Positions 10,123 through 41,219 of a stretch of DNA of 64,000 bases are shown piece after piece (position 1 is the first letter of the stretch; each line of letters starts with the position of its first letter). The DNA is from a virus, in the IMG/VR virus record IMGVR_UViG_3300021961_000037, positions 1 through 64,000 of that record. One strand, written 5' to 3'. A model generated the notes under the pieces. The model did not search any database. It had not been told where the DNA came from and saw nothing but the letters and a program-made list of their open reading frames with translations. The translations under genes and the position numbers were made by a program.

Positions 10123-10143
10123 GATTCCACACAAGGGGGTTCT

Positions 10144-19476: not shown

Positions 19477-19478
19477 AC

Positions 19479-20462
19479 ATGAGCAAACTAAATGTTTTCT
19501 ATAACAACGATTACACGGCTTCTCCTGAATCTTTTGAGACCACTCGAAAGTCAAAGTTTGTAGCCAAGAGGCTTGCCAAGCATCACGCAAATGATGTCAA
19601 TGTCGTTGATCCTCGTCATTTTGTACATCAAAGCACAATTGATGAACTCATCACCGCAACACACACCAAACAGTATGTTGACGCACTGAAAACTGGAAAA
19701 CCATTACACCTTGCAGCATCAAGCGGGTTTGAGTGGGGAGCATCAACATACGATTTTGCCCTTGCGCATGCGCATGGCGTCGTAGCATCAGTTGACTTAG
19801 TTATTGAGAACGGTGGTCGTGCTGGGACTCTTTCCTCGGGTCTTCACCATGCATCGCCGGAACATGGTTCTGGTTTTTGCACCGTGAACGGTCTTGCTGT
19901 CGGAGCGTTACGCGCCGTGCAACAAGGACGAAAAGTAATGATTCTTGACTTTGATGCACATTGCGGTGGCGGAACAATGAAGCATCTCAATCGAATGATT
20001 GAAAATGGACAAATCAATAGCGGAGACATCGTTCAGGTTGACCTGAGTGTTTCTGGATTTGATATGTACGAAACAAATACAGCCAACTACAGGCGTGTCG
20101 TTTCACTTCACTCAGACAGCAATATGGGTGACGATGGCGAAGAATCAATATCTGATTCTGGTGACGAATATATTGAGTGGATTACCGATGCTTTGGTGGC
20201 TGCTGAACTTCGTTACCAAGACGACATGATTGTTATCTATAATGCTGGAATTGACCCAATAAATGTTGTTGATTTCGGTGACCCAATGGGAGTTTTGGAG
20301 CGCAGAGAGGAACTGGTATCAAGTTGGATTGCCGATAAGCCATCAGTGTTCACACTGGCTGGTGGCTACAAGTGGAATGATTTTACGCTTGACGACATTG
20401 CGGATGGACATATCATTAACATCGCAATCTGGGCACGACACCTTGCACGGGTAAGCGCATGA
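19479..20462 (+). CDS. Zn-dependent histone-deacetylase family protein (AcuC/AphA-like)
   Basis: GLHHA....GSGFC..N, ILDFDAHCGGGT, YNAGID, LAGGY. Confidence 0.9.
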   Translation: MSKLNVFYNNDYTASPESFETTRKSKFVAKRLAKHHANDVNVVDPRHFVHQSTIDELITATHTKQYVDALKTGKPLHLAASSGFEWGASTYDFALAHAHGVVASVDLVIENGGRAGTLSSGLHHASPEHGSGFCTVNGLAVGALRAVQQGRKVMILDFDAHCGGGTMKHLNRMIENGQINSGDIVQVDLSVSGFDMYETNTANYRRVVSLHSDSNMGDDGEESISDSGDEYIEWITDALVAAELRYQDDMIVIYNAGIDPINVVDFGDPMGVLERREELVSSWIADKPSVFTLAGGYKWNDFTLDDIADGHIINIAIWARHLARVSA

Positions 20463-20722: not shown

Positions 20723-20986
20723 ATGAAAAACTCCTACAATCCACAAGAGGAAATAAGTGATATTTCACAGCGCCTAACTGAACTTGCGGAGACCTACGAA
20801 AAACGAATCAAAGCGCTTGAGGAAATGGTCATCTCCATGGAAAAACTTCTCAAAGATATGGCGACAAAAAGTGCTTACTTTGAACGCGGTCAACACCGAC
20901 TGGGCACTAAGATTGACAACATTGAAGGAACCATTGGGAAAACATTTCCCTCTATTGGAGATACGACGAAATGGACAAAACAGTAA
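20723..20986 (+). CDS. Hypothetical coiled-coil protein
   Basis: ORF in operon. Confidence 0.6.
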   Translation: MKNSYNPQEEISDISQRLTELAETYEKRIKALEEMVISMEKLLKDMATKSAYFERGQHRLGTKIDNIEGTIGKTFPSIGDTTKWTKQ

Positions 20987-22854: not shown

Positions 22855-23255
22855 TTCTTTTTAAATTCGGCCCAGGTCTTATCTCCAACACCGAAATATT
22901 CTCTGGCGTAGCCAGATTCGATGATGTCTTTATTTAGACAAGCAGTTTTGGGGTCGTTGATATCTTCCGAAGAATAGATGCGAGCCAAAATTCGCCCGTA
23001 TTTATCGTTTTTGTCGGGGATTGTGTTCACATACACCCATTTGTGATTAGTCAACCAATCCTTTGTGAAGGCTTTGGCTTTCAAACCTAGTTCTTTTTCA
23101 GCCAAATCTTTTGTTCGTGATTCGGGCGTGTTGACACCATAAAGACGAACGCGAATCTTGTGATGGATGTTGAATCCAAGGTCAACCATTAGGTCAACCG
23201 TATCGCCATCAACTACATGCAAAACTGTTGCGCCGTACCAAAACCGTTCGCTCAT
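22851..23255 (-). CDS. Thermonuclease (SNase-like)
   Basis: VVDGDT, RVRLYGVNTPE, DKYGRILA. Confidence 0.9.
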   Translation of the reverse strand: MSERFWYGATVLHVVDGDTVDLMVDLGFNIHHKIRVRLYGVNTPESRTKDLAEKELGLKAKAFTKDWLTNHKWVYVNTIPDKNDKYGRILARIYSSEDINDPKTACLNKDIIESGYAREYFGVGDKTWAEFKKN

Positions 23256-23689: not shown

Positions 23690-24997
23690 TCAGGCAGGTG
23701 CTCCGTCGAACGTGACAGCAACGAACGCCTCAGGGCGCTTGACGGCGAGCGCAAGGCGCTGCTCGGCAAGAACCACGATTGCGTTACGGACGAAGAAGTC
23801 CGCATGCTGTTCGCTGATTCGGATGGACGCTTGCTCGCGGTCGTACAACTGCGCGCCGGTTCCGAACGCACCGACGAGAGCGGTGCCCTCGGCGATGGCA
23901 GGAGTGTCCACGACGGGGATGCGCCACAAACGTGGCTGACCACCGAGTGCAACCGAGACAGCAACGAGGTACTGACCGTTGTTGTCCTTCGACAGTTCGA
24001 TGTCTTCCCAGTCGTTCGGGTGCAAAACGACACCCGTCGGCTCGTAGTACGCAAGGAACGACAGCGTGGCAGCGCGACGAATCGCGTCAGCCTTGAGGTC
24101 GCCCACTGCGCCAGAAGACCAGTCGTAGGTCTGGATGCCCGATGTCTGAAGAACGCCAGTCAGGTTCTCGCCGGTGCCATCACCGTTGAGAATCTGCTCG
24201 TCTTCCTGCAGACGGAGACCGTACATCAACTCGTTGTCGATGATCGAGCGCAACTGCGGCTCGTCAGCAAGAACGTTGCGGTGTGCGGCTTCCCAGTGGG
24301 CGAGTGTGCGGACAGGAGCCTGCTCACCAACGAATGTGAAGCCAGACTGCGGCTTCGCTGCGAAGGTTGCCGGCGAACCACCACGCTCAGCAACTGCTGC
24401 GGCGTTGTTGGTGAAGCCCGTCATGCGGAAGTACTCGATCACTGCTGCAGTGGTCGTGCGGGTTGGGAACAGGTCACGAACGCGACGTGTGCGCATCGGC
24501 GGAACGACGATGGCGTCACGCTGAACCGAGCCGAAAGAACCAGGGGTGCCACTCGGCAGTGCCGAGTAGATGTCCTTGGTGCCCCAAGCGCCGGTCACAT
24601 CGGCACGGTTGACCATGTAAGGCGAAGGCATGTTCGCGCCGTTACGACCCTGGTTCAGAGCCTTGAACTCGTCGGATGTTGTGAACATCTCGCCGAGGCT
24701 CTTGGCCTGATACGGAGCCGGAGCGGACTGCGAAGCGACGGCGGCTGCCTGAGCGACGGACTCAGCCGACGACTCCGAACCCCAGCGCTCTGCATCGCGC
24801 ATTCCCTCAAGACCCTCAATGAGTCCCTTGATTTCGCGAATGTCCGACATGTTGCGGTCAAACGCACTCTTCTGTTCTGCGGAAACAACAACTGTTCCAT
24901 CTTCGACCTTGAAAGAGTCGGCAATGGTCTTGTTGTCCGCCATCTTTGCGCGAAGTGCACCTTGCAGTTCGCGGAGACGACTGTCATCGAATGACAT
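23690..24997 (-). CDS. Major capsid protein, HK97 fold with N-terminal delta domain
   Basis: AAAVAE....KP, VRTLAHW, L.D.PQL.S.I, QILNGDG, LHPNDW..I...KD.NG.Y, RLALAV.RPEAF; AGGAGG RBS. Confidence 0.95.
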   Translation of the reverse strand: MSFDDSRLRELQGALRAKMADNKTIADSFKVEDGTVVVSAEQKSAFDRNMSDIREIKGLIEGLEGMRDAERWGSESSAESVAQAAAVASQSAPAPYQAKSLGEMFTTSDEFKALNQGRNGANMPSPYMVNRADVTGAWGTKDIYSALPSGTPGSFGSVQRDAIVVPPMRTRRVRDLFPTRTTTAAVIEYFRMTGFTNNAAAVAERGGSPATFAAKPQSGFTFVGEQAPVRTLAHWEAAHRNVLADEPQLRSIIDNELMYGLRLQEDEQILNGDGTGENLTGVLQTSGIQTYDWSSGAVGDLKADAIRRAATLSFLAYYEPTGVVLHPNDWEDIELSKDNNGQYLVAVSVALGGQPRLWRIPVVDTPAIAEGTALVGAFGTGAQLYDREQASIRISEQHADFFVRNAIVVLAEQRLALAVKRPEAFVAVTFDGAPA

Positions 24998-25161
24998 ATT
25001 ATTCCTCCTACGGAATAGTTTGGATGGGTGATTTGTATTTCTTGTCGCGACTTAGGTAAGCACCCAGTCCAGTAACGTTTAAATTACTGTACTAATGAGA
25101 ATAACACTTTGGTAGTACTTTAAAATGCAACCCCCATAACGGGCAGTTGTATTTGATATCT

Positions 25162-26295
25162 TTACAGCCTTTTATACCGTTTAACTACTTGGGGGCAGCA
25201 CGCAGATTTGTATTTGATACCAAACTCTCCATCATCAAAATTGCCATCTTTCTTGGCATTTTTGGGGTCTTTGGATGGATGATTTGCGGGAATAAGGTCA
25301 AAATCTTTCCGCGTTCCCTTCGGCATGGGGGCAGATGAACTCATTGCTTTCAGAAATGTTCCAACCCTTTTCATCGCCTCTTTTTCATCACCAACAGACA
25401 AACCACGTAGATAGACAGTCTTCAAATCACGAAGATTTGTTCTGAACAATGGGTTGTCAACATCGGCATTATGACGCCTAACACGGATAGCGAGAGCATT
25501 CACTGCCTCGCTGTCAATTGTCGGTATTTTTCGTTTCGGACGGTTTATTTCCTTCTTCTGAATAAAAGAATCCGCTAGTTCTTTCTTCCTCCCACGACGA
25601 CGACCACGAGGCGAGTTATCGCCACGAATGTTCATCACACGGTTATAGTCGGATCCGTTTGAGCACGGCAACCAAACAATCTTGCCGTCGCGTGCCGTAT
25701 ATCTCCTGATTCCTATACATCCGAGGTTTCTTGAGCGGACACGAGCAGAATCGGGGTTGGTGAATACATCAGGGTCGGTTGATCGACTTACAAAGTTGAC
25801 AAATCCTTTATGGTCAATGTCTGTTACGTCTTCATCTTTTCCTGCAACTGGTGCAGACATAAGACCGCCACCGTCAATAGTCTCAATCCCAATTACGCCA
25901 CGCTGACCCAAATTTTCAAACTTGTCGGTTGCAACACATGGTGCGTAGTACCGTTCTCCGCCAAGGATAACTACACGTACTTTTGAGCATCCATTGCGCT
26001 TTGATGCAGCAAGAGCCATCCCTCTGTCTTTGTAATATTCTGAAGATTTTGATTCCATTCTCAGCGACCTGTGAACAATCTCGGCCTCTGAGACAAAACG
26101 GCTTTTTGCCCCCGCCTTCAGATATTCAGACTTACCTTTTCGGATAGCGACAAACTCGTCGTGAGACGCACAGGGCATCCACGACCCGTCAGCCTCGTGT
26201 GCACCACGGCATCCGAGTTGGCGGGCTACACGAAGAGCCTGTTCACGAGAGACTTTCGGTTTTTCACCTTTTGAAGAAAAGGAAACAGATTTCAT
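25162..26295 (-). CDS. Head-module protein with three A...A...GC...W/Y.PC repeats (DUF3721-like) and a C-terminal LK.VY.RG...DL.P..HP domain
   Basis: LGCRGAH...WMPC; NGCSKV...YAPC; LGCIGI...WLPC. Confidence 0.7.
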   Translation of the reverse strand: MKSVSFSSKGEKPKVSREQALRVARQLGCRGAHEADGSWMPCASHDEFVAIRKGKSEYLKAGAKSRFVSEAEIVHRSLRMESKSSEYYKDRGMALAASKRNGCSKVRVVILGGERYYAPCVATDKFENLGQRGVIGIETIDGGGLMSAPVAGKDEDVTDIDHKGFVNFVSRSTDPDVFTNPDSARVRSRNLGCIGIRRYTARDGKIVWLPCSNGSDYNRVMNIRGDNSPRGRRRGRKKELADSFIQKKEINRPKRKIPTIDSEAVNALAIRVRRHNADVDNPLFRTNLRDLKTVYLRGLSVGDEKEAMKRVGTFLKAMSSSAPMPKGTRKDFDLIPANHPSKDPKNAKKDGNFDDGEFGIKYKSACCPQVVKRYKRL

Positions 26296-26537
26296 TAATC
26301 TTCTATTTCTATATTTTCCATGGATGAACCCATGAACTCATCGTAAAGTTCATCAATCTTGTCTCTATTCTCTGGCTGGGAAAGGTACCACGCCATCATG
26401 TCTGACGCATTTTCATCGTCTGATTCATTTGCGAAGGCAACAGCAATCGTCAAAATACGTTGGCGAAGTTCCGGTGACTCCACATTGTCAAAAAATTCTG
26501 CGCGCATTGCAACAATGTCTTCATCTGAAAGTTTCAT
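26295..26537 (-). CDS. Small acidic protein, candidate immunity/partner of the GNAT effector
   Basis: TAATG-coupled directly after the 1018-aa gene. Confidence 0.6.
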   Translation of the reverse strand: MKLSDEDIVAMRAEFFDNVESPELRQRILTIAVAFANESDDENASDMMAWYLSQPENRDKIDELYDEFMGSSMENIEIED

Positions 26538-29500
26538 TATGCCCTGACCCTTCTGTTGCGACGCCTAACTGGTGTCAATGATGTCCTCAAAAGTCTACGG
26601 GGATCAGACTCAACTTTTTCTCTAGCGAATGTCAAAATACCGCCACCAATTGGTGCATTAGCAAGGAACCACCCTTTAACCTGAGCATCACGAACCTTAT
26701 CTTTGCCGCTTCCCGAGACGGCAAAAATCATTTCTTGGTGTGAAACCCGTGGCTTGGTGAGCAATTTCCTCACTAGTGCATATTCTTGGTCGTTGCGAAT
26801 AAGCCCACCGCCACCAAATTTCTCATAGAAACGAACTTCTTCAAGAAACGATTCAACCGGGAATGCTGATCTTGGCTTATAGCCAACTTTTGCCCAAACA
26901 AACTGACCATCCTGAGCGGCTGTAACTTTTGCTTTGGTTACGCCAATTGCTTGGAGACCCATGAAGGCATAGTTGTTGTAAATGGTTGCAATACCATTGT
27001 TTTTGTCGGCATCATTGGTGATGAAAAGTGTTCCGTTGTACACCTGCTTGTTGTTCAAAGTTATTGACCTTGACGATGAGCCGACTTTTCGAAGTATCCG
27101 ACCGTTACTGTCAATTTCATTGAAATTAACCTCAACACTGAAACTTGAACCAGAGCCCCTAACAGAGGCAACGGCGTTGTAGAGTTTCCCGTTTTCTCCA
27201 ACAATTTTGTCATGCTGATAGAGATTTTTGATATAAGCCTGCTGCTCGGAAGGTTGCAACATGCGGAATGCTTCAGGCGTCATGTCCTTCCACGGCAGGT
27301 CGCCATCGCCATGTCGTTGTCTTAGGTATTCACCGATTTTTTTCTTGCGTCGCACAATTCCATCACCAATAACATTTTTGATGTTGTCCGCCACACCCTG
27401 CCCGAGTTTCGCTGCTTTTTCATCAAGTTTGAAATCTGGTCGTTGCTGAGCAAAACGAACAGCAGCAATCAAATCGTCTTTGCGTGACTGATACGCACGG
27501 TATTGGGCGAGGTTTCCATACTCGCTACTTAGCGACGCAAGGAATTGAAGAACATTTTCGTTTTGGGGAGAATTTTTTATCCTATCTTTTAGTTGTGTAA
27601 TGCGTTCTAGTATCTGATTTTCGTTCTGTGGAATTGCAAGACGAAGATTCTGGTTAACCCTGTCTGCTATTTCTTGGTTGGTCGCATTTGCATTGATGGA
27701 AGCCAGAACTCTCAGCAGTGATCTTTGCATGGCTCTATTTGCAGAATGAACACCCTTCAAATGTTGACCATCCAACCCGTCAACCCAAGCAAATGCCTTT
27801 GCCCGCAACTGCTCATCTTGAATTCGATTAACAAAACCTTTAATTTCGTCAATTTCCTTCTTGTCAATACCTTTGATTTCCGCAGCAGCAAATGCTTTCG
27901 GTTTTACCCCACCAGCATTTACCTGTGGTGCGTTTGGAACAGTAGGAGGCTCTGGGGCGTTGGGCGCCTGTGGCTCTTTCGGTGCCTTTGGTGCTTGTGG
28001 CTTAGGCGCATTGCGTCGCTCATCACGCTCACGAATCAGCCTATTGATCCGGTTTGTTCGCTCGTTATAGTTGATTCGCGCAATTTCGTACTCTTCATTG
28101 CGGAGGACAACTAATTCTGCGAGAAGACCTATTTGTTCTTTGCGTTGGTCGTTATCTGGTTGGTTATTTATTAAATCTGCAATGCGATTAAGTGCTGATC
28201 GCCTATCCCCACTTCGTCCAGTCATCCTGTTGAGGTCGGCATCTCTTTGTTGATTGAGAAGAGGGATACGGTCTTCACCATACTGTCCAACAACACCAAT
28301 TACACGAGACTCAATCTCGTTTAGTCTTCCATCAAGTCCACGCAATCGTTGGAGGACGACTGAACGCCTATCTTCGCTCATCGGAAGACCTTCAACAAAC
28401 TTGCGGACTTTCTCTTCGTTCGCGGCGTTGCCACGCTCTGGAATGTCCGAAAGCAAATCAGTCGCTTTGATTCTTTTTCTGGGCGCAGGTTTTGGCGGTT
28501 GCGCACCAGCATCTGGAACCGCATCAGCGTTGGGTCGTTGTGTTGCAACACGCTCGGCCCTCTGCTCCGAAGCAACGCGACGACGCTGGCGCCTCGGCCT
28601 TGGCGTAGGCTGAACTGGTTGAGCCTCTGGAGCGTCAACTCTTGGCGCATTTTCATCCGTTCTTGGAGCACCAGGCTGAACAATCTCCCGCTGCATTCGT
28701 CGTTGTTCCGATGGACGAAGATTTCCACGGCTTTGGCGTCGGCGTCTTGCTGGTGCTGCTGGTTGTTCAACTACCCGCTCTACACGGTTGCGCCTACCAG
28801 CGTTAGCCCCACGGGGTCGTCGTGGTGGGTTGACTACCTCAGTTGACCTGTCATCATCTCGTCCTTCAAGCCGTTCTGCAACTCCTCGAAGACCACGCTC
28901 AAGACGACCTGCCCCTCGTTCGGCGTTTTGTAAACGGTTCACCATTCGTTCGTTGCGGCGATTTACTCTCCTGCCGCGGCGACCATCATCAATATTTTCA
29001 AGACGTTCACCGATATTTGTTATTGCATTAGCAATACGTCGCGCCACTCCCCAGCCACAGTTTCGTCCAAAGCGATCCGTAATTTGACCGCCATACCGCG
29101 TACCGACTGGGCACCGCCAACCTCCACGCCGGTTCGTTCCCGGAATTGACAGATTGGGGTCCCACATTGCCCGTACACGCTTTACCTCATAATTAAATGT
29201 TGTTTTGTGTCTTTCCGAAATGAATGCGGACGCTTTGTAGGCAATGATTGATTTTGCTTCTTCTGTTGAAAAAACCGATATTGGGGTGTCAGAAATTGAA
29301 ACAATAGGGAGCATCTTTTCTTGTTCTTGTGACTCAGATGCTTCTGCTTTCGCTTTTTCTATTGCCGCTGGAAGCAAATTCTGTGGCATTGGGCCGTCAA
29401 TCCTCATGCCTCTATCTAGTGAAACTGCAAGTTCTGATTTGGGTATTGGGGAATCCTCATATTCGTCAACAAGGGCGCTGACAAGTTCTTTCGCATTCTC

Positions 29501-29593
29501 TGTTAGGGGCGTGAATTTTGAGCCTTGGCTGGATACAAGCACGGAGAAGAAAGGCTTGTTGTCTCGTGTCCTAACCAGAAAAGCAGTGTTCAT
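26537..29593 (-). CDS. Putative virion-associated polymorphic effector with C-terminal GNAT acetyltransferase-like domain
   Basis: Shared RCPVGTRYGGQITDRFGRNC module; C-terminal LFI....KNNGIAT...GVTKAKVTAAQDGQFVWAKVGY (GNAT motifs A/B). Confidence 0.7.
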   Translation of the reverse strand: MNTAFLVRTRDNKPFFSVLVSSQGSKFTPLTENAKELVSALVDEYEDSPIPKSELAVSLDRGMRIDGPMPQNLLPAAIEKAKAEASESQEQEKMLPIVSISDTPISVFSTEEAKSIIAYKASAFISERHKTTFNYEVKRVRAMWDPNLSIPGTNRRGGWRCPVGTRYGGQITDRFGRNCGWGVARRIANAITNIGERLENIDDGRRGRRVNRRNERMVNRLQNAERGAGRLERGLRGVAERLEGRDDDRSTEVVNPPRRPRGANAGRRNRVERVVEQPAAPARRRRQSRGNLRPSEQRRMQREIVQPGAPRTDENAPRVDAPEAQPVQPTPRPRRQRRRVASEQRAERVATQRPNADAVPDAGAQPPKPAPRKRIKATDLLSDIPERGNAANEEKVRKFVEGLPMSEDRRSVVLQRLRGLDGRLNEIESRVIGVVGQYGEDRIPLLNQQRDADLNRMTGRSGDRRSALNRIADLINNQPDNDQRKEQIGLLAELVVLRNEEYEIARINYNERTNRINRLIRERDERRNAPKPQAPKAPKEPQAPNAPEPPTVPNAPQVNAGGVKPKAFAAAEIKGIDKKEIDEIKGFVNRIQDEQLRAKAFAWVDGLDGQHLKGVHSANRAMQRSLLRVLASINANATNQEIADRVNQNLRLAIPQNENQILERITQLKDRIKNSPQNENVLQFLASLSSEYGNLAQYRAYQSRKDDLIAAVRFAQQRPDFKLDEKAAKLGQGVADNIKNVIGDGIVRRKKKIGEYLRQRHGDGDLPWKDMTPEAFRMLQPSEQQAYIKNLYQHDKIVGENGKLYNAVASVRGSGSSFSVEVNFNEIDSNGRILRKVGSSSRSITLNNKQVYNGTLFITNDADKNNGIATIYNNYAFMGLQAIGVTKAKVTAAQDGQFVWAKVGYKPRSAFPVESFLEEVRFYEKFGGGGLIRNDQEYALVRKLLTKPRVSHQEMIFAVSGSGKDKVRDAQVKGWFLANAPIGGGILTFAREKVESDPRRLLRTSLTPVRRRNRRVRA

Positions 29594-29750
29594 TGATTTG
29601 CATCTTTCTAGATTGCAGAATAGTGCGTGCGTAGCATCAAAAACGCTATAGAAATCTTACCACTATGTGATATGCGCCGTAGAGCAAGCACGGGGAGACA
29701 GATTTTCGGTCAACCCAACACTGGATATGTAACCAATTTCAGAAGTTGTA

Positions 29751-30089
29751 TTATTCTGCCTTTGGTGTTGCCCACGCACTTGCTGTTGCCACTGACTTTT
29801 TTGCTCCGTCCGATTCTGGCTCAAAGAAATCAGATGGATTTGGTGAATATCCGTTTGACTCCCAGAATTTCCCTAAGTAGATATAGGCGATGTCTTCGTA
29901 TTCGTTTGTAGATGTCGCTTTTTCCAATTTTTCAGCGACATTGTTGAGATATGTTTTCGTCTCATCGTCGGTAGAAGGGTTAATCATTATGTTGACTTTC
30001 CCATCTTCAATCACAACAACAGAACGAGGCGCTTTACGCTTGTCTACATCATCAAGAAAATAACTTACATATGTTCCATCTTCAAACAT
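29751..30089 (-). CDS. Small protein, candidate immunity/partner of the kinase effector
   Basis: Starts 2 nt after the 948-aa gene stop, GGGAG RBS. Confidence 0.6.
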   Translation of the reverse strand: MFEDGTYVSYFLDDVDKRKAPRSVVVIEDGKVNIMINPSTDDETKTYLNNVAEKLEKATSTNEYEDIAYIYLGKFWESNGYSPNPSDFFEPESDGAKKSVATASAWATPKAE

Positions 30090-30091
30090 TT

Positions 30092-32938
30092 CTACTCCCT
30101 TGATGCTTGAGCGATATTGCGCAATGTTGCTTGGATGTTGTCCCTATTCGCTCTGATTCTATCTTGTGGCATGCCAATCGCTCGCCAATAACGAACCATT
30201 TCTGTAACCACATTTGCAATTGTGGCGTCAGACAGATTGCGGAAATTTTGTCTAATTGCCGCCGAATCAACCCTTTCCAGTATTCGTCTAGCATCGTCAA
30301 GAGACCTCTGTGGCACGATCCCACGCCCTCCTGCCATAATTCCATGGTCAATCGGCAGTTTCTGATTTCCCGCCCACATGTAGTTGTTGATATGCCTGTC
30401 TGGATTTCCAAGAATCTCATCAATAAACTTGACATGTTTTGATGCTTGGCGGTCAGGGCTGTTTGGAGCATTGCGCCCTTCGGTAACATCCATGCCATGA
30501 ACATCGCCAAAATGTTCAACAAGAATACTGTGGTTCATATTCCGTCTATTTCGCTCTCGATTTACACGCTCTTCTCTTGCTCCAATAATGCGAACACGCG
30601 CCATTGGGCGGCCAGACAACTGACCAATAAGAGCAGCCAACTGTTCACCCACCGCTTCATCTTCCACAAATGACGGAGATTTAATGATGTAGCGCTTTCC
30701 AGTTACCTGATCAACCACAAGATATGTTTTATGTCTGTCGGATGCGGCACCCCTATTATTGATACCGTTCCCAGGGTCTCCAAGTAGTTGAAATCTTTTT
30801 CCATTGACTGGAGTTCCCGGCATTGCTGCATTATCAAATATTGCGTCTTTGACCAAGAGGTCTGGGACATCATCAAGCGACCCGCCATTCGCTAAATGAT
30901 TTTTTGCATCAGTAGCATTATTGATTCCCACATTTCCACTTGCAACATGCTTTGGAACGAGGACGCCATCAACGACGGTGTGTCCCATGTTTTGCTCAAA
31001 TCGCTTATTGCCATGCCCGTGAATGCCAGTATTAACTGACCTGAGGTCAGAAGCCTTTATTTTGTCCCCATCAGCCCCTCGGCGTCGCCGTGTTTTACGA
31101 ACTGGTGTTTGTGGTTCTGGTAGCGGTTCTTCAGCCGGAGGTGGCTGTGGCGGTTGTGATGGGAGTCTGCGAGCAGGAGGCTCAGGCGGTGCCTGTCTTT
31201 GATTTGGGGCAGCAGCACCACGGTTGCGCTCTTGAATCATTCGGTTCACATAATCACCACGGGCATTGCGCTGATTGTTGTTGTCGTAGTAGCGACCGAA
31301 ACGGCGCTCAAGTTCGGCTTTTTCTTCGCCTTCAGGGAAATCTGGTTCACGCCAATACGCAGTGTCTGGAAGACCATTCTGGCGGAAGCGGTTATATACA
31401 TTTCTCTCTGAACGTGCATCGGGAAGACTTCCACCCAAATCTGGTGGTTGTGGTGGTGCGGGTGGTGCGGGTGGTGCTTCTGGAACAACTCGTGTTGGTC
31501 TAGCCGCAGGACGTTGCTGTGGAATCGGTTGGTCGGCAGGACGAGGACGGCGATTAGCGCCCTGACCAGCCTGTGCATCTGAAGCATTCACCCTGCGACG
31601 ACGCGGGGCTCGGGGTTGAGGTCGACGCTCTGGTCGTGGAGCAACATTCCTCTCGTCAGGAACTTCACCACCATTTGCGCGACCCCATGCTTCACGCAGA
31701 TTGTTGCGGTTGAATTTGTACCACTCATCTCGGGTGAGTAAACCAGCCCGACCGCCACGACGCTGAATTTCTTGCACACGATTCTCGTACTCGGCGTATT
31801 TGCGATTTACGTAGTCGTCGTACCTTTCGCCCGCTCGTGGTGCATCACCAATATCGCTGGCTGTTTCGTCCACTCGTTCTGCTGCTGCTCCTCGGCGTCG
31901 AGGTTGCCTTGGTGGGCGAGGTGGCTCCTCTGTGCGCGGAGCGCCAGGCTCTCGGACTTCTCGTTCCATTCTCCGCTGTTCAGATTCACGAAGATTGGGT
32001 CGCCGTCTCCTCGGCGGGCGAGGTGGTGTTTCTCTATCTTCTGGAACATCGATTTCTTGTTGCCGTTGCGGTGCGACACGACGAACAGGACCAACACGAA
32101 GCGGACCATCTTCGCCGAATACCTGCGCTAAACGACCCCTCCTGCGTCCGCCAGTTGTTGGTTCTGCAACGCCATCACCTTCAAGACGTTCTGCGATACC
32201 ACGCAATCCACGCTCAACACGTCCACCAGCGCCAGCATCTCGCCGGAGTCTGCTAGCCATTCTTTCATTTCTGCGATTTACTCGCCGACCACGACGACCG
32301 TCGTCAATGTTTTCCAATCGTTCGCCAATGTTGGTTATTGCATTTGCAATCCGTCGTGCTACACCCCATCCACAGTTACGACCAAAGCGGTCAGTTATTT
32401 GACCACCGTATCGTGTACCTACCGGGCACCTCCAACCGCCACGGCGATTTGTTCCTGGGATTGCCAAATTGGGATCCCATAGCGCACGGACACGCTTAAC
32501 CTCATAGTTGAATGTTGTTTTGGTTTGGTCAGCGATAAAGGCGAGCGCTTTGTATTCAATGATGTTGTGGCGAATTTCGCTTGGGAAGTCATCAATTACG
32601 CGGTCGGCAACATCTGATGAATATACGGTTTTTGAAATCATTGCTGGCGGCTTTGTTCCGCTTTCATATTGCGGAATGTTTGCTTCCTCTAGAAATGATG
32701 CAATCCGTGTTCGTGTTTCCCTATTGACTTGCAATGGACCCTCTATGCTCAGGTCATCATCAAGCGCCCCATCAAGTTCGTTTTTCTTTATCGGCTTGTT
32801 TTTGTAGGCTTCATCAAGCGCATTTGTGACATCGTCGGCATCTTCGGAAAGTGGCTGAAAGTCTGTTGACCCAGCAGAAACCGTTACGAGGATATACGGA
32901 CGGTTGTCTCGTGTGCGGATGAAGTAAACGGATTTCAT
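30092..32938 (-). CDS. Putative virion-associated polymorphic effector with C-terminal HipA/PI3-4-kinase-like domain
   Basis: Shared N-terminal module; YIIK...EAVGE.LA...ILGNPDRHINNY...PIDHG kinase motifs. Confidence 0.75.
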   Translation of the reverse strand: MKSVYFIRTRDNRPYILVTVSAGSTDFQPLSEDADDVTNALDEAYKNKPIKKNELDGALDDDLSIEGPLQVNRETRTRIASFLEEANIPQYESGTKPPAMISKTVYSSDVADRVIDDFPSEIRHNIIEYKALAFIADQTKTTFNYEVKRVRALWDPNLAIPGTNRRGGWRCPVGTRYGGQITDRFGRNCGWGVARRIANAITNIGERLENIDDGRRGRRVNRRNERMASRLRRDAGAGGRVERGLRGIAERLEGDGVAEPTTGGRRRGRLAQVFGEDGPLRVGPVRRVAPQRQQEIDVPEDRETPPRPPRRRRPNLRESEQRRMEREVREPGAPRTEEPPRPPRQPRRRGAAAERVDETASDIGDAPRAGERYDDYVNRKYAEYENRVQEIQRRGGRAGLLTRDEWYKFNRNNLREAWGRANGGEVPDERNVAPRPERRPQPRAPRRRRVNASDAQAGQGANRRPRPADQPIPQQRPAARPTRVVPEAPPAPPAPPQPPDLGGSLPDARSERNVYNRFRQNGLPDTAYWREPDFPEGEEKAELERRFGRYYDNNNQRNARGDYVNRMIQERNRGAAAPNQRQAPPEPPARRLPSQPPQPPPAEEPLPEPQTPVRKTRRRRGADGDKIKASDLRSVNTGIHGHGNKRFEQNMGHTVVDGVLVPKHVASGNVGINNATDAKNHLANGGSLDDVPDLLVKDAIFDNAAMPGTPVNGKRFQLLGDPGNGINNRGAASDRHKTYLVVDQVTGKRYIIKSPSFVEDEAVGEQLAALIGQLSGRPMARVRIIGAREERVNRERNRRNMNHSILVEHFGDVHGMDVTEGRNAPNSPDRQASKHVKFIDEILGNPDRHINNYMWAGNQKLPIDHGIMAGGRGIVPQRSLDDARRILERVDSAAIRQNFRNLSDATIANVVTEMVRYWRAIGMPQDRIRANRDNIQATLRNIAQASRE

Positions 32939-34221
32939 TTCTTTGCTTTTGCCTTAAGTGATTCCTTGATGAAAGCCTCATAAACCCATTTGCGCACTGT
33001 TCGCTCAACACCATCCGGACCAGTAAATGTCACTAGTTCAAGCGGTTCTGGGACATTGCCGAAGTCTTCTGTGTATTTGAATGCGCCTTTTGTTGCGTCC
33101 GCAAATTCTTTTATGTTTGCGCCGACATCATATGGATTCTTATTCACTGCACTGTTTAGTTGTCGCCCAAATTTCCGGCGTTCACCAACGGTCAGTGGTC
33201 GCTGTCTTTCAATGCTGATAGAAGCACCATTGGGTGCAACAAACGCAATCCTACTCATTGATGGGCCAGCGAGAAGCGCAAGATCATCGGAGGATATTGC
33301 TTGTGGCGTTCTTGCTGCGCGAATCATTGCTCCATCCAGCATGTCTTTGTTTCCGCTGAACTGGCGGAGAACAGACGATGGAACAACTGGACGAAGAACG
33401 ATTCCGTCACGACGAATCATCCGACCTTCACCATCCTCTGCGCTCTTCAGCACTTTGATTGCATCAAGAACCGACTTGTTGAAAGCCTTCCTATTCGGGG
33501 CGGCATTTCTTGGTATTTTTGCAAGACGCTGAATTTGAAGAGTTCTCTCACGCGTGTTTTGTCCCTGCACAACTTCAGAAAGACTTTCTGCGCGTGCAGT
33601 TGGTGGCTTATTGTTTGCACGTCGGATTGCTCGTGCAATCAAAGCCAAGGGTCCTGGGATGTCAAACAATTGGGCTCCACATGTTGAGAATTGGTTGTCT
33701 GTGAATCTGCCACCAAACTCAAATCCTGCAGGGCATCGTGAAATCTTGTCATTGACATTAGGGATGAAGCGACGAACCCCGCCACCACCACCTGGAGTGA
33801 GGGCGCGATAAATACCCGAACGTATCGGGTTCCTTGCCGGAGATACGTTTCCAGGTGTTACATATGAACCAATGCCTTGAATAGTCCTTCCAATTGTTGA
33901 ACCAGAACTAACAAGTCCTACTTTTTCGTTAATTGGGTCACCGCCAACAACTCCCCTGCTGATTGTTGAGCCAAGGCGTGACATTCTTTGACGAAGATAA
34001 AGATGTGCTTTAAGATTCAGCAAATCCCTGTTCCCGTTAAGTGGGGTTGAACGAATGTTGGAATGACTGGTTGCAAGTTGTTTAGATTCGTTGATTTTTA
34101 TGGTCATTTCCGTTCCGAGCGGGATGATTGTCCGTTTCACTGAACTTCCAGTACGGCATCGACTCTTCACCCTGCGTGTCCGCAGAAAGCGGTCAATTGT
34201 TTGATTTATGAAACTGCTCAT
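32935..34221 (-). CDS. Head-module protein with RCP..GG.FTD..C module and degenerate JAB/MPN-like domain
   Basis: RCPAGFEFGGRFTDNQFSTCG; GAMIRAARTPQAISSDDL...RIAFVAPNG (SxxD kept, HxH lost). Confidence 0.6.
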   Translation of the reverse strand: MSSFINQTIDRFLRTRRVKSRCRTGSSVKRTIIPLGTEMTIKINESKQLATSHSNIRSTPLNGNRDLLNLKAHLYLRQRMSRLGSTISRGVVGGDPINEKVGLVSSGSTIGRTIQGIGSYVTPGNVSPARNPIRSGIYRALTPGGGGGVRRFIPNVNDKISRCPAGFEFGGRFTDNQFSTCGAQLFDIPGPLALIARAIRRANNKPPTARAESLSEVVQGQNTRERTLQIQRLAKIPRNAAPNRKAFNKSVLDAIKVLKSAEDGEGRMIRRDGIVLRPVVPSSVLRQFSGNKDMLDGAMIRAARTPQAISSDDLALLAGPSMSRIAFVAPNGASISIERQRPLTVGERRKFGRQLNSAVNKNPYDVGANIKEFADATKGAFKYTEDFGNVPEPLELVTFTGPDGVERTVRKWVYEAFIKESLKAKAKK

Positions 34222-34281
34222 CGGTGCCCTTTATTAGGTCGCAACTTATTTGAGGCTGAAATAATTGTACATTACTGAATA

Positions 34282-34533
34282 TCACTCCGATTCCTTCGGT
34301 TTGTCACCAATTCCGACGGATTCACGCCACTGTTCAATGTTTTTGTCGTTGATAACGACTTTGCCGTTTCTTGGCCGAGTACTCAGCATTACATCAATAT
34401 CCGTCGGCATTACGGATTCAGTAACAATTGTATACCAGATTTCCCCGTCGTATCCATGAACATAGGTTGCGCCAAGAAAACTGGTGACCCTTTCGCCACT
34501 GTGCCCGGTGTAGTCAGGTACTTTTAACGCCAT
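34282..34533 (-). CDS. Small protein, candidate immunity/partner of the zincin effector
   Basis: TGATG-coupled after the 761-aa gene, GGAGG-like RBS. Confidence 0.6.
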   Translation of the reverse strand: MALKVPDYTGHSGERVTSFLGATYVHGYDGEIWYTIVTESVMPTDIDVMLSTRPRNGKVVINDKNIEQWRESVGIGDKPKESE

Positions 34534-36818
34534 CAGAAAATAACCTCTTCCTTTGGAAGGTCTGGCATCCGACCAGAAACCGCTCTCAATTTACGAACCC
34601 ATGCTTTCGCTTCTGGGGTCATGATAGTTGAACTGACCTGAGAATTTTGCGGAACAATCAAACGTGTCATCCGACTAATATCATCAATAACCTTGTCATC
34701 AATTACATTGGCATCAGGGAAATGTTGCACATATTTGCTAATCGTGATTCCCTCTGCAACGGACTCCCAAATGTTGGTTCTTGCGTAGTCGGACGATTGC
34801 CCAAGGTTCGGCAAAACATCCCTAAATGTTTGACCTTTGCTTTGTATGCGCATTGAGTCAAATCCAAGAACACCACTGAATGCCTGACGGCCTTCCTCCA
34901 TGAAATCCTCAATACTTTGTCCGTCAAGCGCTGTCTCAATGACTCGTCTGATGCCGTCAATTTCTTTGAAATCTTCAACATCATCTGTTTTGTAACCAAA
35001 CATCTTATTTCGGTTAGAGCCAACAGAATCCAGCGCCTGATAAAGGATGTTGTCCTTATCCCTCAATACTGTCTCTTTCGGAGAATAAAACTGGTTCAAG
35101 TTTTGAAGAGCATTTGAATCACTGTCAACCGCAAAACTGTGAAGAGTTCTAGTCGTGTAGTTACCAAAATATTCATCAAGATTCTTTGCTCCGGTGTAAC
35201 CGAAGTTTACTCGTCTTTCTTTTTCATCAGTAAAAAGTTTCGTAATATCAGACCATTTGGCATCAGGGTCAATACCGTGGTCAAGTGCAAAACGTGAGCC
35301 AAGATATGTGTCTCCAACATTTTCACCTTTGGAAATAATCTGTTGAAGCGCCGGCTTTGCGCTCGCATCCGGGTCAATGCCAACAGACCTTAGGATTTCA
35401 ACATAGTGCGATGCGTGAGCAACTTCGTGGATAGCGAGATTCACCTGATTATCGTCTGCGCCAATAATTCTCACCGTATGATCCAGCATGTCTCCTGCCC
35501 TGCCGACATCATCACTCAGTTTGGAATTATCCATCACCAAAGAATCTGGCACGATGCGCACAGCAGGAATTACTTTTCCATCACTATGAGCGGCCATCCA
35601 TGCGTAACCACCAGCACCGTCCAAACCCCTATCGCTTGAACGATGTACCTCAAAGGTGAATGTTCCTCTTAAGGATGGGTTATCGGCAAGAGAAATCTCG
35701 ACACCGACAAGAGACTCAATTATTCCTTTGGCAACCTCATTGCGGACGGCATTTTTGCCTTCTTCGGTTTGCATAATGTCAATGATTTTCTGTAATTGAC
35801 CTGCAAGTTCCTTGCGTCTTGCATCTCTTTGCGGCTCAAGCCCGTCAATTGCTTCAGTTATGAGAGCAATTCGCTTAGCGCCATCTTTTTCAAGATAGTC
35901 AAGTGAATCATCAATCATTTCCTTTGCACTTCTTGACTGTGGTATCCCCATCTTCAGCATCAATTCGTCGCCAAATTCTTCAAAACTTCTTTCCCCACGG
36001 TCTGGGACATATTTTGCGAGGAGTTTCTCCGACTTCGCCTCAAGTTCGGTATTGAAAGAATCGGCATCAAATGTGACTTTTGCGAGTAGCGGGCTACGAT
36101 CAGAATCTGCTGGTGGTGAAGCATCAGCCAAATCCATCTGCGGGGTTTCAAGTCTCCTATTTTCTTTTCTGTTCTTTTTTCGGATTGACGCAAGTACGCC
36201 AGTTGAATACCTTGCGGTACCAAAAAGATTGAGTCTGTCAATAAGTTCATTGGCCTCTGACCGCTGTTCTGCTGTCAGTTTCCCACTCTTCTCCAAACGA
36301 TTAAGCGCTAGTTCAGCCACATCTCGTCCTGCAGAACGAACCAAATCAACACCAAGAAGAGTCATTGCGGAAAGCGTCCCAGAACCGTCAACATTCAAGT
36401 AATCCAAAGCGTCAAGAGTTGCGAGCGAAGCCATTACTGCAACACGTGCAGCACCGCGAACTTCTTTCTTATCTAGGACTGCTTTTGCTTGAGAAAGCAG
36501 TTGACCAACTTCTCTCCTGCTAGCACGAACCGCACGTTTTGCGAGCGCCAAGCCAGGAACCATGCAGTTGGACATCTGCATGTCGGTAAACTGATTGGCG
36601 TTTGGCGTACCCGGCGGGCAACGAAGTTTCCCCAACTCGTCAACAATCACTCCAGCGGCACGCGCAGCACGAGAGCCAACAGATGAAATGTTTGGGTTGT
36701 CCCTCAGCGAAGGACCAAGAAAGCCCTTGAACAAAAGGACATTTTCGTGAACAGAAGATACAGATTTTCTGTATGCCTCCACCCTCTCGTTTGCATCCCA
36801 AGCAAGAGACGACTTCAT
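34533..36818 (-). CDS. Putative virion-associated effector with zincin metallopeptidase domain
   Basis: RCPPGTPNANQFTDMQMSNC module; AIHEVAHASH (HExxH) and downstream SDYARTNIWESVAE. Confidence 0.7.
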   Translation of the reverse strand: MKSSLAWDANERVEAYRKSVSSVHENVLLFKGFLGPSLRDNPNISSVGSRAARAAGVIVDELGKLRCPPGTPNANQFTDMQMSNCMVPGLALAKRAVRASRREVGQLLSQAKAVLDKKEVRGAARVAVMASLATLDALDYLNVDGSGTLSAMTLLGVDLVRSAGRDVAELALNRLEKSGKLTAEQRSEANELIDRLNLFGTARYSTGVLASIRKKNRKENRRLETPQMDLADASPPADSDRSPLLAKVTFDADSFNTELEAKSEKLLAKYVPDRGERSFEEFGDELMLKMGIPQSRSAKEMIDDSLDYLEKDGAKRIALITEAIDGLEPQRDARRKELAGQLQKIIDIMQTEEGKNAVRNEVAKGIIESLVGVEISLADNPSLRGTFTFEVHRSSDRGLDGAGGYAWMAAHSDGKVIPAVRIVPDSLVMDNSKLSDDVGRAGDMLDHTVRIIGADDNQVNLAIHEVAHASHYVEILRSVGIDPDASAKPALQQIISKGENVGDTYLGSRFALDHGIDPDAKWSDITKLFTDEKERRVNFGYTGAKNLDEYFGNYTTRTLHSFAVDSDSNALQNLNQFYSPKETVLRDKDNILYQALDSVGSNRNKMFGYKTDDVEDFKEIDGIRRVIETALDGQSIEDFMEEGRQAFSGVLGFDSMRIQSKGQTFRDVLPNLGQSSDYARTNIWESVAEGITISKYVQHFPDANVIDDKVIDDISRMTRLIVPQNSQVSSTIMTPEAKAWVRKLRAVSGRMPDLPKEEVIF

Positions 36819-36830: not shown

Positions 36831-37061
36831 TTAGAACGATTCGGCTTCGGCAGGCTTCTCTTCTGTTGACTCAACCACCGCTTCTGTCACATCGGACTCG
36901 GCAACCGGCTCAGCAACGACTGCTTCTGCTTCATGTGCAACGGACTCTTCAGCCTTCTTTGATGAACGCTTCTTTGGTTTTGGCTGGGCGGAATCCTTCA
37001 CTTCTGAAGATTCTGCTCCGCCGATAAATCCAGCGCTGTTGGGTTGACGAACTTTCTTCAC
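36831..37061 (-). CDS. Small low-complexity protein
   Basis: GTGA overlap with upstream gene. Confidence 0.55.
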   Translation of the reverse strand: MKKVRQPNSAGFIGGAESSEVKDSAQPKPKKRSSKKAEESVAHEAEAVVAEPVAESDVTEAVVESTEEKPAEAESF

Positions 37062-38569
37062 TTTGTTTCTCCATCTTGCTCAATTTCCAATGCGAGCATC
37101 TCAAACTCCATCAGGGAACCGATGAGATTCTTTGCTTCGTCGTCAGAAAGTTTCTCTTCATCTGTTTCGACCAGAGACTTCTCTCCGTCCATCCAGTTTT
37201 CAGGAATCATTTCTTCCTTGCCAAGGTCGCGGGCACGCTTCATGATGTGCTTCTTTGCCGCTTCCTTATCGCCTGCGCGACCGAAAGCCTGAATTGCGTT
37301 CTGCAAGTCCGCCTCATCAACGATTGGGAATGATCCGTCTGGAAGAGCCATGCCTTCTTTGGCAAGTTCTTCACGGCGGTCGTCGCTATACATGCGCTTC
37401 AGGGCAAGGTCAGCAACTTCCTCATCAATATCCGATGCTTCTTCGGCATCGTACTCGTCATATCCGAGTACTTCTCCGTCAACACCAACGAAGACATCGT
37501 AAGACTTGCCGTCCGTGCCCTCAATTTCAACGGCGTATGCGTCGTAGCCCTCGAACATGTCTGCATCAACGGCAACAACTTCGCCCTCAATGGACTTCGT
37601 TGCAATTGACGCTGCTTCGTCAAACGAGATGACTTTCTCGCCAGGGACTGTGGCAACTTCGCCAATCAAATCCTCATTCAGGAGGTGCCATCCCATGCAC
37701 TCGCCGGTAGTTCCGTCAAAGTAAGCCTCAATCGGCTTTCCATCTTTGCGCTGAACATCAACAACGAAGATATCCGTCTTGTCTGCGTATCCAGAGTCAA
37801 GGATTTTTCCGCTGAACATATCTTCGGCGATACCTTCAACTTCAAGAAGTGTCGGCATATTTTCGTGTGGTTCGCATCCGCCAGGGCAGTTTGCGCAAAT
37901 GTCACTTCCACCAGGGTACATTTTGCGCTCAATCGCGCAAACGAACGCCTGCTCGTCACCATCGAACTGCTCGCTCTTCACGCCCATGCTTTCCATGCGC
38001 TTCTTGCGTGCATTCTTGCGGTTCTTGAGCATTTCCTCAAGTTGACCCCACATCTTTTCTTCTTCTTCGTCGTCCATTTGGTCGTCGCCATCAACTGCTG
38101 TGACAGCGTCTTCCTTCATGTCGTCTTCTTCTTCGTCGTCCTCTTCGTCGGCGACTGCTGCGGCCATTACTTCCATCGGGGAAGTTGGCTTGGCTGCTGA
38201 CGCCTTCTCTTCAACATCCTCAACATTCTCTGTTGTCTCAGTTGTTGAGTCTTCAACCCAGTCGGACTCAAATTCATCATCCTTGACTGCGACGGCGGTA
38301 GCACCGCACTTGCCGCAGACTTTTGCGCCTGGCTTGTATCCGCACTCAGAGATATCAAGACCCTTTGCGCACTTAATATCGCCGTTGGCGAGAAGTTGGA
38401 CTGTCGGTGTATCTGCCATGTCTTCTGACTCCTTGTATTGCATCGTCTTCACGATGCAACCCGCTGGATTGGTACAACCACTACATGGCGTAAGGCGTTT
38501 AACGCCCGAAACCATGCAGTGATATTTTGCTGATTTTTCTGGTAAACCTGTATTAGAAGTATAACCCAT
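37058..38569 (-). CDS. Acidic head-module (scaffold-like) protein with Cys clusters and tandem PepSY-like domains
   Basis: Three Cys clusters; ISFDEAASIA....GEVV.VD......YAVEI...DGK.YDV.V..DGEVL; C-terminal LPDGSFPI...DLQNAIQAFGRA domain. Confidence 0.7.
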   Translation of the reverse strand: MGYTSNTGLPEKSAKYHCMVSGVKRLTPCSGCTNPAGCIVKTMQYKESEDMADTPTVQLLANGDIKCAKGLDISECGYKPGAKVCGKCGATAVAVKDDEFESDWVEDSTTETTENVEDVEEKASAAKPTSPMEVMAAAVADEEDDEEEDDMKEDAVTAVDGDDQMDDEEEEKMWGQLEEMLKNRKNARKKRMESMGVKSEQFDGDEQAFVCAIERKMYPGGSDICANCPGGCEPHENMPTLLEVEGIAEDMFSGKILDSGYADKTDIFVVDVQRKDGKPIEAYFDGTTGECMGWHLLNEDLIGEVATVPGEKVISFDEAASIATKSIEGEVVAVDADMFEGYDAYAVEIEGTDGKSYDVFVGVDGEVLGYDEYDAEEASDIDEEVADLALKRMYSDDRREELAKEGMALPDGSFPIVDEADLQNAIQAFGRAGDKEAAKKHIMKRARDLGKEEMIPENWMDGEKSLVETDEEKLSDDEAKNLIGSLMEFEMLALEIEQDGETK

Positions 38570-41185: not shown

Positions 41186-41219
41186 ACTTTCAGTAAAGTG
41201 TCTTTGGTTTACTGAAAGT
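41186..41219. repeat. 12-bp inverted repeat ACTTTCAGTAAA-N10-TTTACTGAAAGT between portal and protease
   Basis: Seen directly; half-site recurs at 18178-18188 and partially at 52025-52033. Confidence 0.75.

Follow-up and report, generated by a model that had tools for sequence, protein, structure and literature searches.

Within the late head operon of an uncultured virus, we identified an array of four large, co-oriented genes whose products share a short cysteine-bounded segment, here called the RCP module, and end in different C-terminal domains. The DNA analyzed (the window) comprises 64,000 bases, positions 1 to 64,000 of IMG/VR record IMGVR_UViG_3300021961_000037. The four proteins are designated by their length as W_761, W_428, W_948 and W_1018, and the small genes behind three of them as W_83, W_112 and W_80. 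We propose, with a probability of about one half, that the four paralogous proteins are protein-modifying enzymes or other cargo, packaged into the head and injected, with a common incorporation module, cognate inhibitors and enzymes that later erase the marks. The proposal is based on the module and its spread, the identities of the C-terminal domains, the specificity of the small genes for their enzymes, the exchange of cassettes between relatives, and the co-occurrence of a candidate eraser.

A conserved module marks four proteins of the head operon

The motif RCPxG..TD..C was found at residues 66–85 of W_761, 162–181 of W_428, 170–189 of W_948 and 160–179 of W_1018. A profile of the module matched the whole 114,094-base record at exactly four places, with E-values from 1.9e-46 to 3.1e-25, and the similarity is therefore far beyond chance. 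An initial annotation, made from the letters alone, had described four large co-oriented genes with a Cys-bounded module between the prohead protease and the capsid gene. Indeed, all seven open reading frames (ORFs) of the array lie where it had placed them, and the motifs are exact. The module spans about 40 amino acids (aa) across all four proteins and about 90 aa in W_948 and W_1018, which are 92% identical to each other over this segment. Comparison of three paralogue types from four phages gave G, R-C-P-x-G, T-D, C-G and A as invariant positions.

Few segments of these phages are as conserved as the module. Its identity among relatives is 74–85%, compared to 39–77% for the protease. Each slot of the array has its own version of the motif, which is invariant or nearly so in orthologues from relatives whose other proteins are just 55–77% identical. 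From a 5.8-billion-protein collection, the 8000 candidates with the best word sharing were searched with the profile, and 867 of them matched. An exhaustive HMMER search of metagenome proteins, as suggested in the initial annotation, yielded 499 clusters at 50% identity with protein lengths of 87–4629 aa, and the tabulated C-termini vary across relatives. In these clusters the module lies at residues 5–100, 110–230, 400–490 or 560–660. The pattern C-P-x-G...[TS]-D...C is kept in nearly all matches, and some proteins carry two copies of the module.

As anticipated, the module does not correspond to a named domain: no match was found in Pfam or PHROGs, and full-text searches returned no literature on it. 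There was no match among 50,697 cultured phage records, even at E 1 (megablast of 20 kb; tblastn of W_1018 and W_428), and the module is absent from the genomes of 185,579 prokaryote species, searched at one genome per species. In an AlphaFold2 (AF2) model of W_428, the motif is predicted to form a beta-hairpin with moderate confidence (predicted local distance difference test, pLDDT, 59–72).

The C-termini are exchangeable yet drawn from a narrow repertoire

W_948 and W_1018 have about 310–340 N-terminal residues in common (52% identity). A second N-terminal domain common to both, NT90 (about 90 aa), is encoded on the minus strand at 29309–29593 (W_1018) and 32609–32938 (W_948). In relatives, NT90 also heads the orthologue of the capsid-adjacent 377-aa protein or forms a separate 97-aa gene (L004, 20673–21260; L019, L043). 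The linkers of the array proteins are 160–400 aa long and contain 20–24% Arg and 12–14% Pro, with net charges of +19 to +23. A hexapeptide, IKA(S/T)DL, stands at the start of the variable parts of W_1018 and W_948 (approximately 28454–28471 and 31045–31062, minus strand). It was rejected as a family junction, as it occurs in these two proteins only and in none of about 120 relatives, and we regard it as a local similarity.

When the last 300 residues of 236 family proteins of at least 600 aa were clustered, 14 clusters were obtained. The kinase type comprises 146 proteins, the GNAT-like type 68 and the W_761 type 7. Judged by these clusters, the C-terminal repertoire is exchangeable yet narrow, with two domain families making up 214/236 ends. 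The variability of the C-termini in the initial annotation was borne out as to their exchange between relatives, though the repertoire is narrow.

The C-terminus of W_948 was assigned, on motifs and profile, as a PI3/4-kinase/HipA-like kinase with a full set of catalytic residues (motifs DRHINN and PIDHG). Six copies that are only 20–26% identical to W_948 and to each other all retain the ATP-binding Lys, the helix-C Glu, D-R-H-x-x-N and the metal-binding Asp. Against the Protein Data Bank (PDB), the profile matched a Fam20-like kinase (4kqa, E 5.6e-4), PI3K and mTOR (E about 0.02–0.07) over the catalytic loop only, as well as the catalytic loops of Vps34 and DNA-PKcs. The HipA_2 score in Pfam is below the cut-off of 27 bits, both for W_948 (13 bits) and for a relative (21.8 bits). 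The PI3_PI4_kinase match is likewise sub-threshold, and several relatives carry a precomputed PF00454 assignment. When all seven proteins of the array, large and small, were scanned against Pfam and PHROGs, the weak HipA_2 match and a weak match of W_948 to phrog_3162 were the only results.

For the C-terminus of W_1018, we relied on structure prediction, and the AF2 model (pLDDT 82) indicates a GNAT fold. All 26 Foldseek matches at E ≤ 1e-3 are acetyltransferases (E from 7e-5, probability up to 1.0), including p300/CBP, GCN5/PCAF and bacterial GNATs. Alignment with VIA returned RimL, NatD, Elp3, PAT, RimI and RimJ at Z 6.8–7.8 over 105–144 residues. A K-N-N-G-I-A stretch ahead of a conserved helix would fit acetyl-CoA motif A (Q/R-x-x-G-x-G/A). 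By sequence profile, no match was found in Pfam or the PDB, the Acetyltransf_1 lead being weak, and the only stand-alone relatives of the domain are three fragments on short contigs. The kinase and GNAT assignments of the initial annotation are hence both retained.

W_761 ends in a putative zincin-like domain, as suggested by its HExxHxxH motif and downstream Glu. Eight orthologues at 25–43% identity to W_761 all retain H464-E-x-x-H468-x-x-H471 and two later Glu. The domain has no sequence match in Pfam or the PDB, and leads to LPD23 and Phage_min_cap2 are weak. Pfam scans of individual members of the HExxH and W_428 families gave only DUF5872, located on an insertion in longer orthologues.

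The C-domain of W_428 is predicted to be confidently folded (AF2, pLDDT 86–91). In VIA, JAMM/MPN proteins and members of the related deaminase fold ranked highest, all at Z ≤ 4.8 (1r5x: Z 4.8, root-mean-square deviation 3.7, 87 residues), and a Foldseek search of the PDB gave nothing at E ≤ 0.001. The metal site of JAMM proteins (E...HxH...S..D) is lacking, with no His in the invariant or near-invariant columns of a 36-sequence W_428 alignment. Of the "degenerate JAB-like" end in the initial annotation, the degeneracy holds and the likeness to JAB is weak; the models hint at an inactive MPN-like domain at most. Among predicted viral structures, the C-domain matched an orthologue and several entries named "Minor capsid protein" (E 7e-5 to 8e-4, probability 1.0).

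Array organization in related phages

Besides the window, 61 related viral loci were compared. Their usual order is portal, protease, a protein of about 500 aa, an ORF of about 87 aa, the array, a protein of 370–560 aa and capsid. The minus strand of the window has the same layout: portal, protease, 503-aa protein, 76-aa ORF, W_761, W_83, W_428, W_948, W_112, W_1018, W_80, 377-aa protein and capsid (Table 1). Below, Z761 and C428 denote the C-terminal domain types of W_761 and W_428. Slot 1 of the array is occupied by RCP-Z761, RCP-kinase, RCP-DUF3626 or RCP-unknown, followed by a small gene. Then come RCP-C428, RCP-kinase with a small gene, NT90-RCP-kinase with a small gene, and RCP-GNAT-like with a small gene. 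Slot 4 ends in either a kinase or a GNAT domain. DUF3626 forms the end of the slot-1 gene in L028 (6256–7941) and L035 (6249–7934), at 39–41 bits and above the cut-off; the other slot-1 ends in relatives match no known family.

In the distant relatives L059–L068, a single protein of about 2400 aa, organized as RCP-C428-RCP-kinase or RCP-C428-RCP-GNAT-kinase, takes the place of the array. This arrangement may be ancestral, or it may have arisen by fusion. In L059 the giant gene (6020–13249) is followed by genes of 150, 112 and 117 aa. The initial annotation had grouped W_428 with the effectors as one with a degenerate catalytic domain. Since W_428 is universal in relatives and fused to the front of the giant proteins, the comparison indicates that it is a universally conserved, partner-less constant core and no decayed effector.

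Small partner genes are specific for the enzyme domains

Each of the three large genes with intact catalytic motifs is followed by a tightly coupled small gene, in line with the initial annotation: W_83 and W_80 overlap the upstream stop and W_112 starts 2 nt after it. We therefore tabulated, for the unique C-termini in the 61 related loci, whether an ORF of 45–170 aa starts within a few bases of the stop codon. Such a gene is present after 61/72 kinase, 15/15 GNAT-like and 8/8 Z761 ends, and after 0/24 C428 ends. In BLAST clusters of the small genes, each cluster is limited to one enzyme class (100% specific). The nearest kinase shares the partner family in 62 of 64 cases, compared to a fraction of about 0.29 expected by chance, a figure that is inflated by relatedness of the phages.

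The partners of the window follow the same rule. Homologues of W_83 occur only downstream of Z761-type proteins (L029, L003, L010, L015, L004), those of W_112 only after W_948-type kinases (L049, and L032 and L020 with the kinase about 45% and the partner 44% identical), and those of W_80 only downstream of GNAT-like (CT2-type) domains, in 12 loci. W_80 and W_112 are acidic (net charge −16 and −9, respectively); the enzymes and linkers are basic. Among the 11 kinase-like regions without a partner, eight are fused behind C428 in proteins of about 680–740 aa, and all eight lack the D.H..N motif. Pfam revealed no helix-turn-helix (HTH) or ribbon-helix-helix (RHH) domains of HipB- or TacA-type antitoxins in the partners. 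A single superfamily for the kinase partners was rejected on hhalign probabilities below 20%.

On this distribution, we regard the small genes as real and cognate to the enzyme domain. We also considered a packaging chaperone that acts on the module. Such a gene should accompany W_428 and co-vary with the N-terminus; neither was observed, and the function of the small genes therefore appears to be tied to the enzyme domain.

Enzyme domain and partner are exchanged together

One case of exchange was seen in L034 and L036. Their DNA is 94% identical for 14.5 kb, a stretch that reaches the linker of the fourth RCP gene. The kinase domain and the small gene that follow have no detectable nucleotide similarity. 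Precisely with the first base of the following gene, which itself opens with an RCP module, similarity returns (81%).

The window provides a second case. Its backbone is closest to L003 and L004 (portal 86 and 77%, protease 77 and 74%, W_428 C-domain 76 and 60% identity, respectively). The W_948 kinase domain and W_112, in contrast, are 69% and 63% identical to their counterparts in L049, a locus whose protease and W_428 C-domain are each only 51% identical, and in L003 and L004 they are undetectable or at most 32% identical. The swap between L034 and L036 and the L049-like kinase cassette therefore suggest that enzyme domain and partner move as one unit. In this respect, the 61-locus comparison agrees with the initial annotation, which had described a conserved N-terminal module, an exchangeable C-terminus and a cognate downstream gene. 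The capsid protein of the window is 82–85% identical to that of the L049 group (L049, L050, L054) and 76% to that of L042. With the capsid nearest the L049 group and portal, protease and W_428 nearest L003/L004, the head module itself is therefore mosaic.

A candidate eraser co-occurs with the GNAT-like domain

A separate two-gene unit on the plus strand, converging on the head operon, encodes a phosphatase and an HDAC-family deacetylase (Table 1). The two may serve to erase marks set by the kinase and the GNAT. An HDAC gene is present in 12 of 24 related records, all 12 of which carry a GNAT-like domain. Among records of at least 70% completeness, it was found in 5/5 with a GNAT-like domain, plus this genome, and is absent from L004 (91% complete), which lacks that domain. 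This co-occurrence supports a real acetyltransferase activity and a write-then-erase cycle. The phosphatase–deacetylase pair points to reversible modification of host proteins, not to killing toxins.

A model for loading and delivery

The following course of events would account for these findings. The RCP module, pictured as a short beta-hairpin with two invariant cysteines and a subsequent basic helix, would recruit each protein to the procapsid or to a single internal complex. W_428, with its module and a non-catalytic MPN-like domain, would be the constant core; the other three would carry swappable enzymes, namely the zincin-like HExxH domain, the kinase and the GNAT, on long basic Arg/Pro-rich linkers. 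The enzymes would be made late, alongside the head proteins, and each would be kept inactive in the producing cell by its small acidic partner, which would remain behind there. Having entered the next host with the DNA, the enzymes could immediately phosphorylate, acetylate or cleave host proteins, and the separately transcribed phosphatase and deacetylase would remove the marks later. Recombination anchored on the conserved modules would swap enzyme-plus-partner cassettes among phages. What we infer here covers packaging, injection, toxicity and the inhibitory role of the partners, as well as targets and timing.

Several findings support this cargo model. The array genes are co-oriented, translationally coupled and located inside the late head operon; the giant relatives of about 2400 aa match the architecture of polyvalent proteins; the C-domain of W_428 matches "Minor capsid protein" models; and acidic partners stand against basic enzymes and linkers, in partner families that are class-specific.

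Other points weigh against it. The evidence for packaging is indirect, no relative was found among the cultured phages, and no cleavage site for the prohead protease was identified. The module was modelled at a pLDDT of 59–72 and has no recognized fold or family. Its best match among solved structures, the zinc ribbon of the archaeal ribosomal protein eL37, is not significant (E 0.05). In that alignment, C-P-R-C and C-A-S-C-G-W-G of eL37 stand opposite C-P-x-G and C-G-W-G of the module; because of this, the module may be a half-degenerate zinc ribbon with one cysteine left per knuckle, which we consider a lead only. The partners belong to no known family in Pfam or PHROGs, and the partner families show no detectable relationship to one another. 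The eight dead kinase-like regions form one orthologous group and therefore represent one evolutionary event, and the absence of HDAC without a GNAT-like domain was seen in a single genome. Finally, genes of the head operon may be merely late-expressed.

In the latter case, the proteins would not be packaged, and the enzymes would act in the producing cell on head or scaffold proteins or on host functions. The module could then serve in oligomerization or regulation instead of incorporation, with the small genes as regulators. The positional evidence consists solely of membership in the late head operon, and the phage's own phosphatase and deacetylase could balance the activities within the same cell. 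However, it is difficult to see why otherwise unrelated enzymes should share an N-terminal module conserved to such an extreme degree if they were not bound for the same place, C428 resembles viral proteins labelled as minor capsid proteins, and the erasers belong to a different, oppositely oriented operon, suggesting a separation in time. Moreover, the giant single-protein relatives resemble polyvalent proteins, which are predicted to be packaged (PMC5512222). We therefore consider action in the producing cell the strongest of the alternatives, and still rather unlikely.

Extending the cargo model beyond this genome, we tentatively suggest that the RCP module might serve a large clade of uncultured actinobacterial myoviruses as a general tag for cargo loading, comparable to the cargo peptides of encapsulins, with interchangeable writers (kinase, acetyltransferase, peptidase, DUF3626), inhibitors that are left behind, and erasers. 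If the module is such a tag, it would represent a new and widespread route by which lytic phages send an exchangeable enzyme set into the host along with their DNA, in phages of a group of bacteria that is dominant in freshwater (PMC6802176). It would also be a candidate handle by which phage heads could be loaded with foreign protein cargo. Several large families of "hypothetical proteins" become annotated as kinase, acetyltransferase and partner families.

Relation to known systems

By analogy, the RCP system is closest in logic to polyvalent proteins and MuF toxins. Polyvalent proteins of phages and conjugative elements contain 2–15 conflict-related domains per polypeptide, are encoded with virion or portal-terminase genes and are predicted to be packaged in the capsid (PMC5512222). 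Like them, the RCP proteins are large, encoded with head and portal genes, include protein kinase and GNAT domains along with putative zincin-like peptidase and weakly JAB-like ones, and are predicted to travel with the DNA. The proteins of the window have two to four recognizable parts each, those of L059–L068 are fusions of about 2400 aa, and family members reach 4629 aa. In contrast to polyvalent proteins, the system described here consists of four to five genes, each with the RCP module, which a text search did not find in PMC5512222. The kinase is PI3/4K/HipA-like, whereas theirs is of a truncated Ser/Thr/Tyr type (PMC5512222), and here each active enzyme has a cognate small partner, plus matched erasers.

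MuF toxins of temperate phages share the conserved head-associated N-terminus, the variable enzymatic C-terminus and the small downstream gene, and delivery by the particle has been proposed for them (PMC5576092), as we propose it here. A variable C-terminus on a conserved N-terminus was indeed found in the slot-1 and slot-4 ends and in the cassette exchange. MuF itself (PF04233) was not detected in a Pfam scan of the four RCP proteins; the sole MuF domain lies at the C-terminus of the portal. The independence from MuF that the initial annotation had stated is thus upheld. A relationship of W_428 to MuF was rejected (hhalign against the MuF region of the portal, probability 0.1). Unlike MuF toxins, which belong to Firmicutes phages, the RCP proteins are found in an apparently lytic phage with probable actinobacterial hosts, without a recombinase gene in the record and with the module in 0/185,579 species genomes. 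Several tagged proteins per genome and a narrow enzyme set are further differences.

These differences bear on the idea, put forward in the initial annotation, of a classical polymorphic toxin–immunity system, in which growth-arresting C-termini would act on the host, on competitor bacteria or on co-infecting phages, with the small genes conferring immunity as they do for MuF toxins. Toxin–antitoxin pairs are known in which the toxin is a HipA-type kinase or a GNAT, and the kinase here is HipA-like. The conserved N-terminus, the exchangeable C-terminus, the specific small downstream gene and the swapping of whole cassettes would also fit. However, a repertoire in which two domain families account for nearly all ends is narrow for such a system, the matched erasers point to control that can be undone rather than to killing, and the partners lack HTH or RHH domains. 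No integrase and no prophage copy in the bacterial genomes were found, and therefore there would be no lysogen to protect or arm. Taken together, we find this idea improbable. A HipBA-type pair was rejected as well, because the HipBA antitoxin is an HTH protein encoded upstream, whereas the partner here lies downstream and has no match in Pfam or PHROGs.

Internal proteins of T4 and the cargo of encapsulins carry terminal tags of about 10 aa; in T4, the tags are cut off by the prohead protease. The RCP module resembles them as a short common sequence on unrelated proteins, encoded beside the gene for an HK97-fold shell, into which their tags direct the cargo. It differs in being 40–90 aa long, folded and often internal (residues 5–660), and it is not known to be cleaved. 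T4 Alt and P1 Dar proteins are packaged in the head, injected, and modify host proteins or protect the incoming DNA (summarized in PMC5512222). The RCP proteins have no sequence relation to them, carry kinases and acetyltransferases in place of ADP-ribosyltransferases, and are accompanied by partner genes and erasers.

A mainly structural role, in which linkers and modules form an inner body, a DNA-associated core or an ejection conduit and the enzymes are secondary additions, would suit the long basic linkers, the universal W_428 core without a partner, and a conserved module that is slot-specific, as for a defined assembly. But even very divergent copies of the kinase retain the catalytic residues unchanged, and partner and eraser genes co-vary with the enzyme domains, which indicates selection on enzymatic function. 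We consider this role quite improbable. Effectors of a "Trojan horse" kind, directed against eukaryotes grazing on infected cells, as suggested for actinophage ADP-ribosyltransferases from freshwater (PMC6802176), appear very far-fetched: the best solved matches of the kinase profile are of eukaryotic type (Fam20-like, PI3K and mTOR) and the idea is already published for related phages, but those matches span only the catalytic loop, the partners and the phage phosphatase and deacetylase fit a bacterial intracellular cycle, and Pfam scans revealed no secretion or translocation domain.

The phage, its host and neighboring genes

The complete record has 114,094 bases, with a CheckV completeness estimate of 78%, and the same DNA is also present as IMG/VR contig UViG_3300044681_000629 (66,589 bases). 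The gene set is that of a myovirus, with tail sheath, baseplate wedge protein, large terminase, MuF-tailed portal, S78 protease and HK97-type capsid. Over almost its full length, the capsid protein is 47–49% identical to capsids of Gordonia phages, and 58% identical to that of Brevibacterium phage Cantare over 77% of its length. The head region of Gordonia phage DalanDe, which is among the top capsid matches (48.9% identity over 98%), contains no comparable array. Two genes with a WhiB domain were detected, at window positions 10183–10386 and record positions 112304–112495 (both plus strand; 57 and 53 bits, cut-off 23.6). WhiB is confined to actinobacteria and their phages, a criterion used in PMC6802176, and this makes an actinobacterium the most likely host. 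Searches of the 78%-complete record turned up neither a tyrosine nor a serine recombinase (integrase or resolvase), and judged by its genes the phage appears to be lytic.

Table 1. Genes of the head operon and candidate eraser genes in the window.
Feature	Position in window	Strand	Details
Portal, MuF domain at C-terminus	41219–43441	−	upstream context
S78 prohead protease + DUF6321	38614–41130	−	upstream context
503-aa protein, very acidic (net −73), weak PepSY match	37058–38569	−	precedes array in nearly all relatives
76-aa ORF	36831–37061	−	conserved; precedes array in nearly all relatives
W_761, slot-1 RCP protein	34533–36818	−	RCP module 36459–36740; C-terminal HExxHxxH, residues 464–471
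W_83, small partner gene of HExxH protein	34282–34533	−	start overlaps upstream stop
W_428, slot-2 RCP protein	32935–34221	−	RCP module 33559–33870; C-domain residues 230–428; no partner gene
W_948	30092–32938	−	NT90, RCP module 32279–32563, Arg/Pro-rich basic linker, kinase about 30095–31063
W_112, small acidic partner gene of kinase	29751–30089	−	start 2 nt past kinase stop
W_1018	26537–29593	−	NT90, RCP module 28964–29248, basic linker, middle region, GNAT-fold domain 26540–27304
W_80, small acidic partner gene of GNAT-like domain	26295–26537	−	overlaps upstream stop
377-aa basic protein (DUF3721 motif), then HK97-type major capsid protein (23690–24997)	23690–26295	−	downstream context
DSP-like Cys phosphatase, signature HCHAGISRST	18970–19476	+	intact H-C-x5-R-S/T
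HDAC-family deacetylase	19467–20462	+	84 bits, cut-off 27.9; overlaps phosphatase gene

The 503-aa protein and the 76-aa ORF are candidates for a scaffold or docking partner of the RCP module. Outside the array, the window encodes a cytosine-5 DNA methylase that bears a long insertion (20971–22854, plus strand), a staphylococcal-nuclease-like protein at the end of the head operon (22851–23255, minus strand), and, amid the tail genes, a PAPS-reductase-like protein (47813–48946, plus strand).

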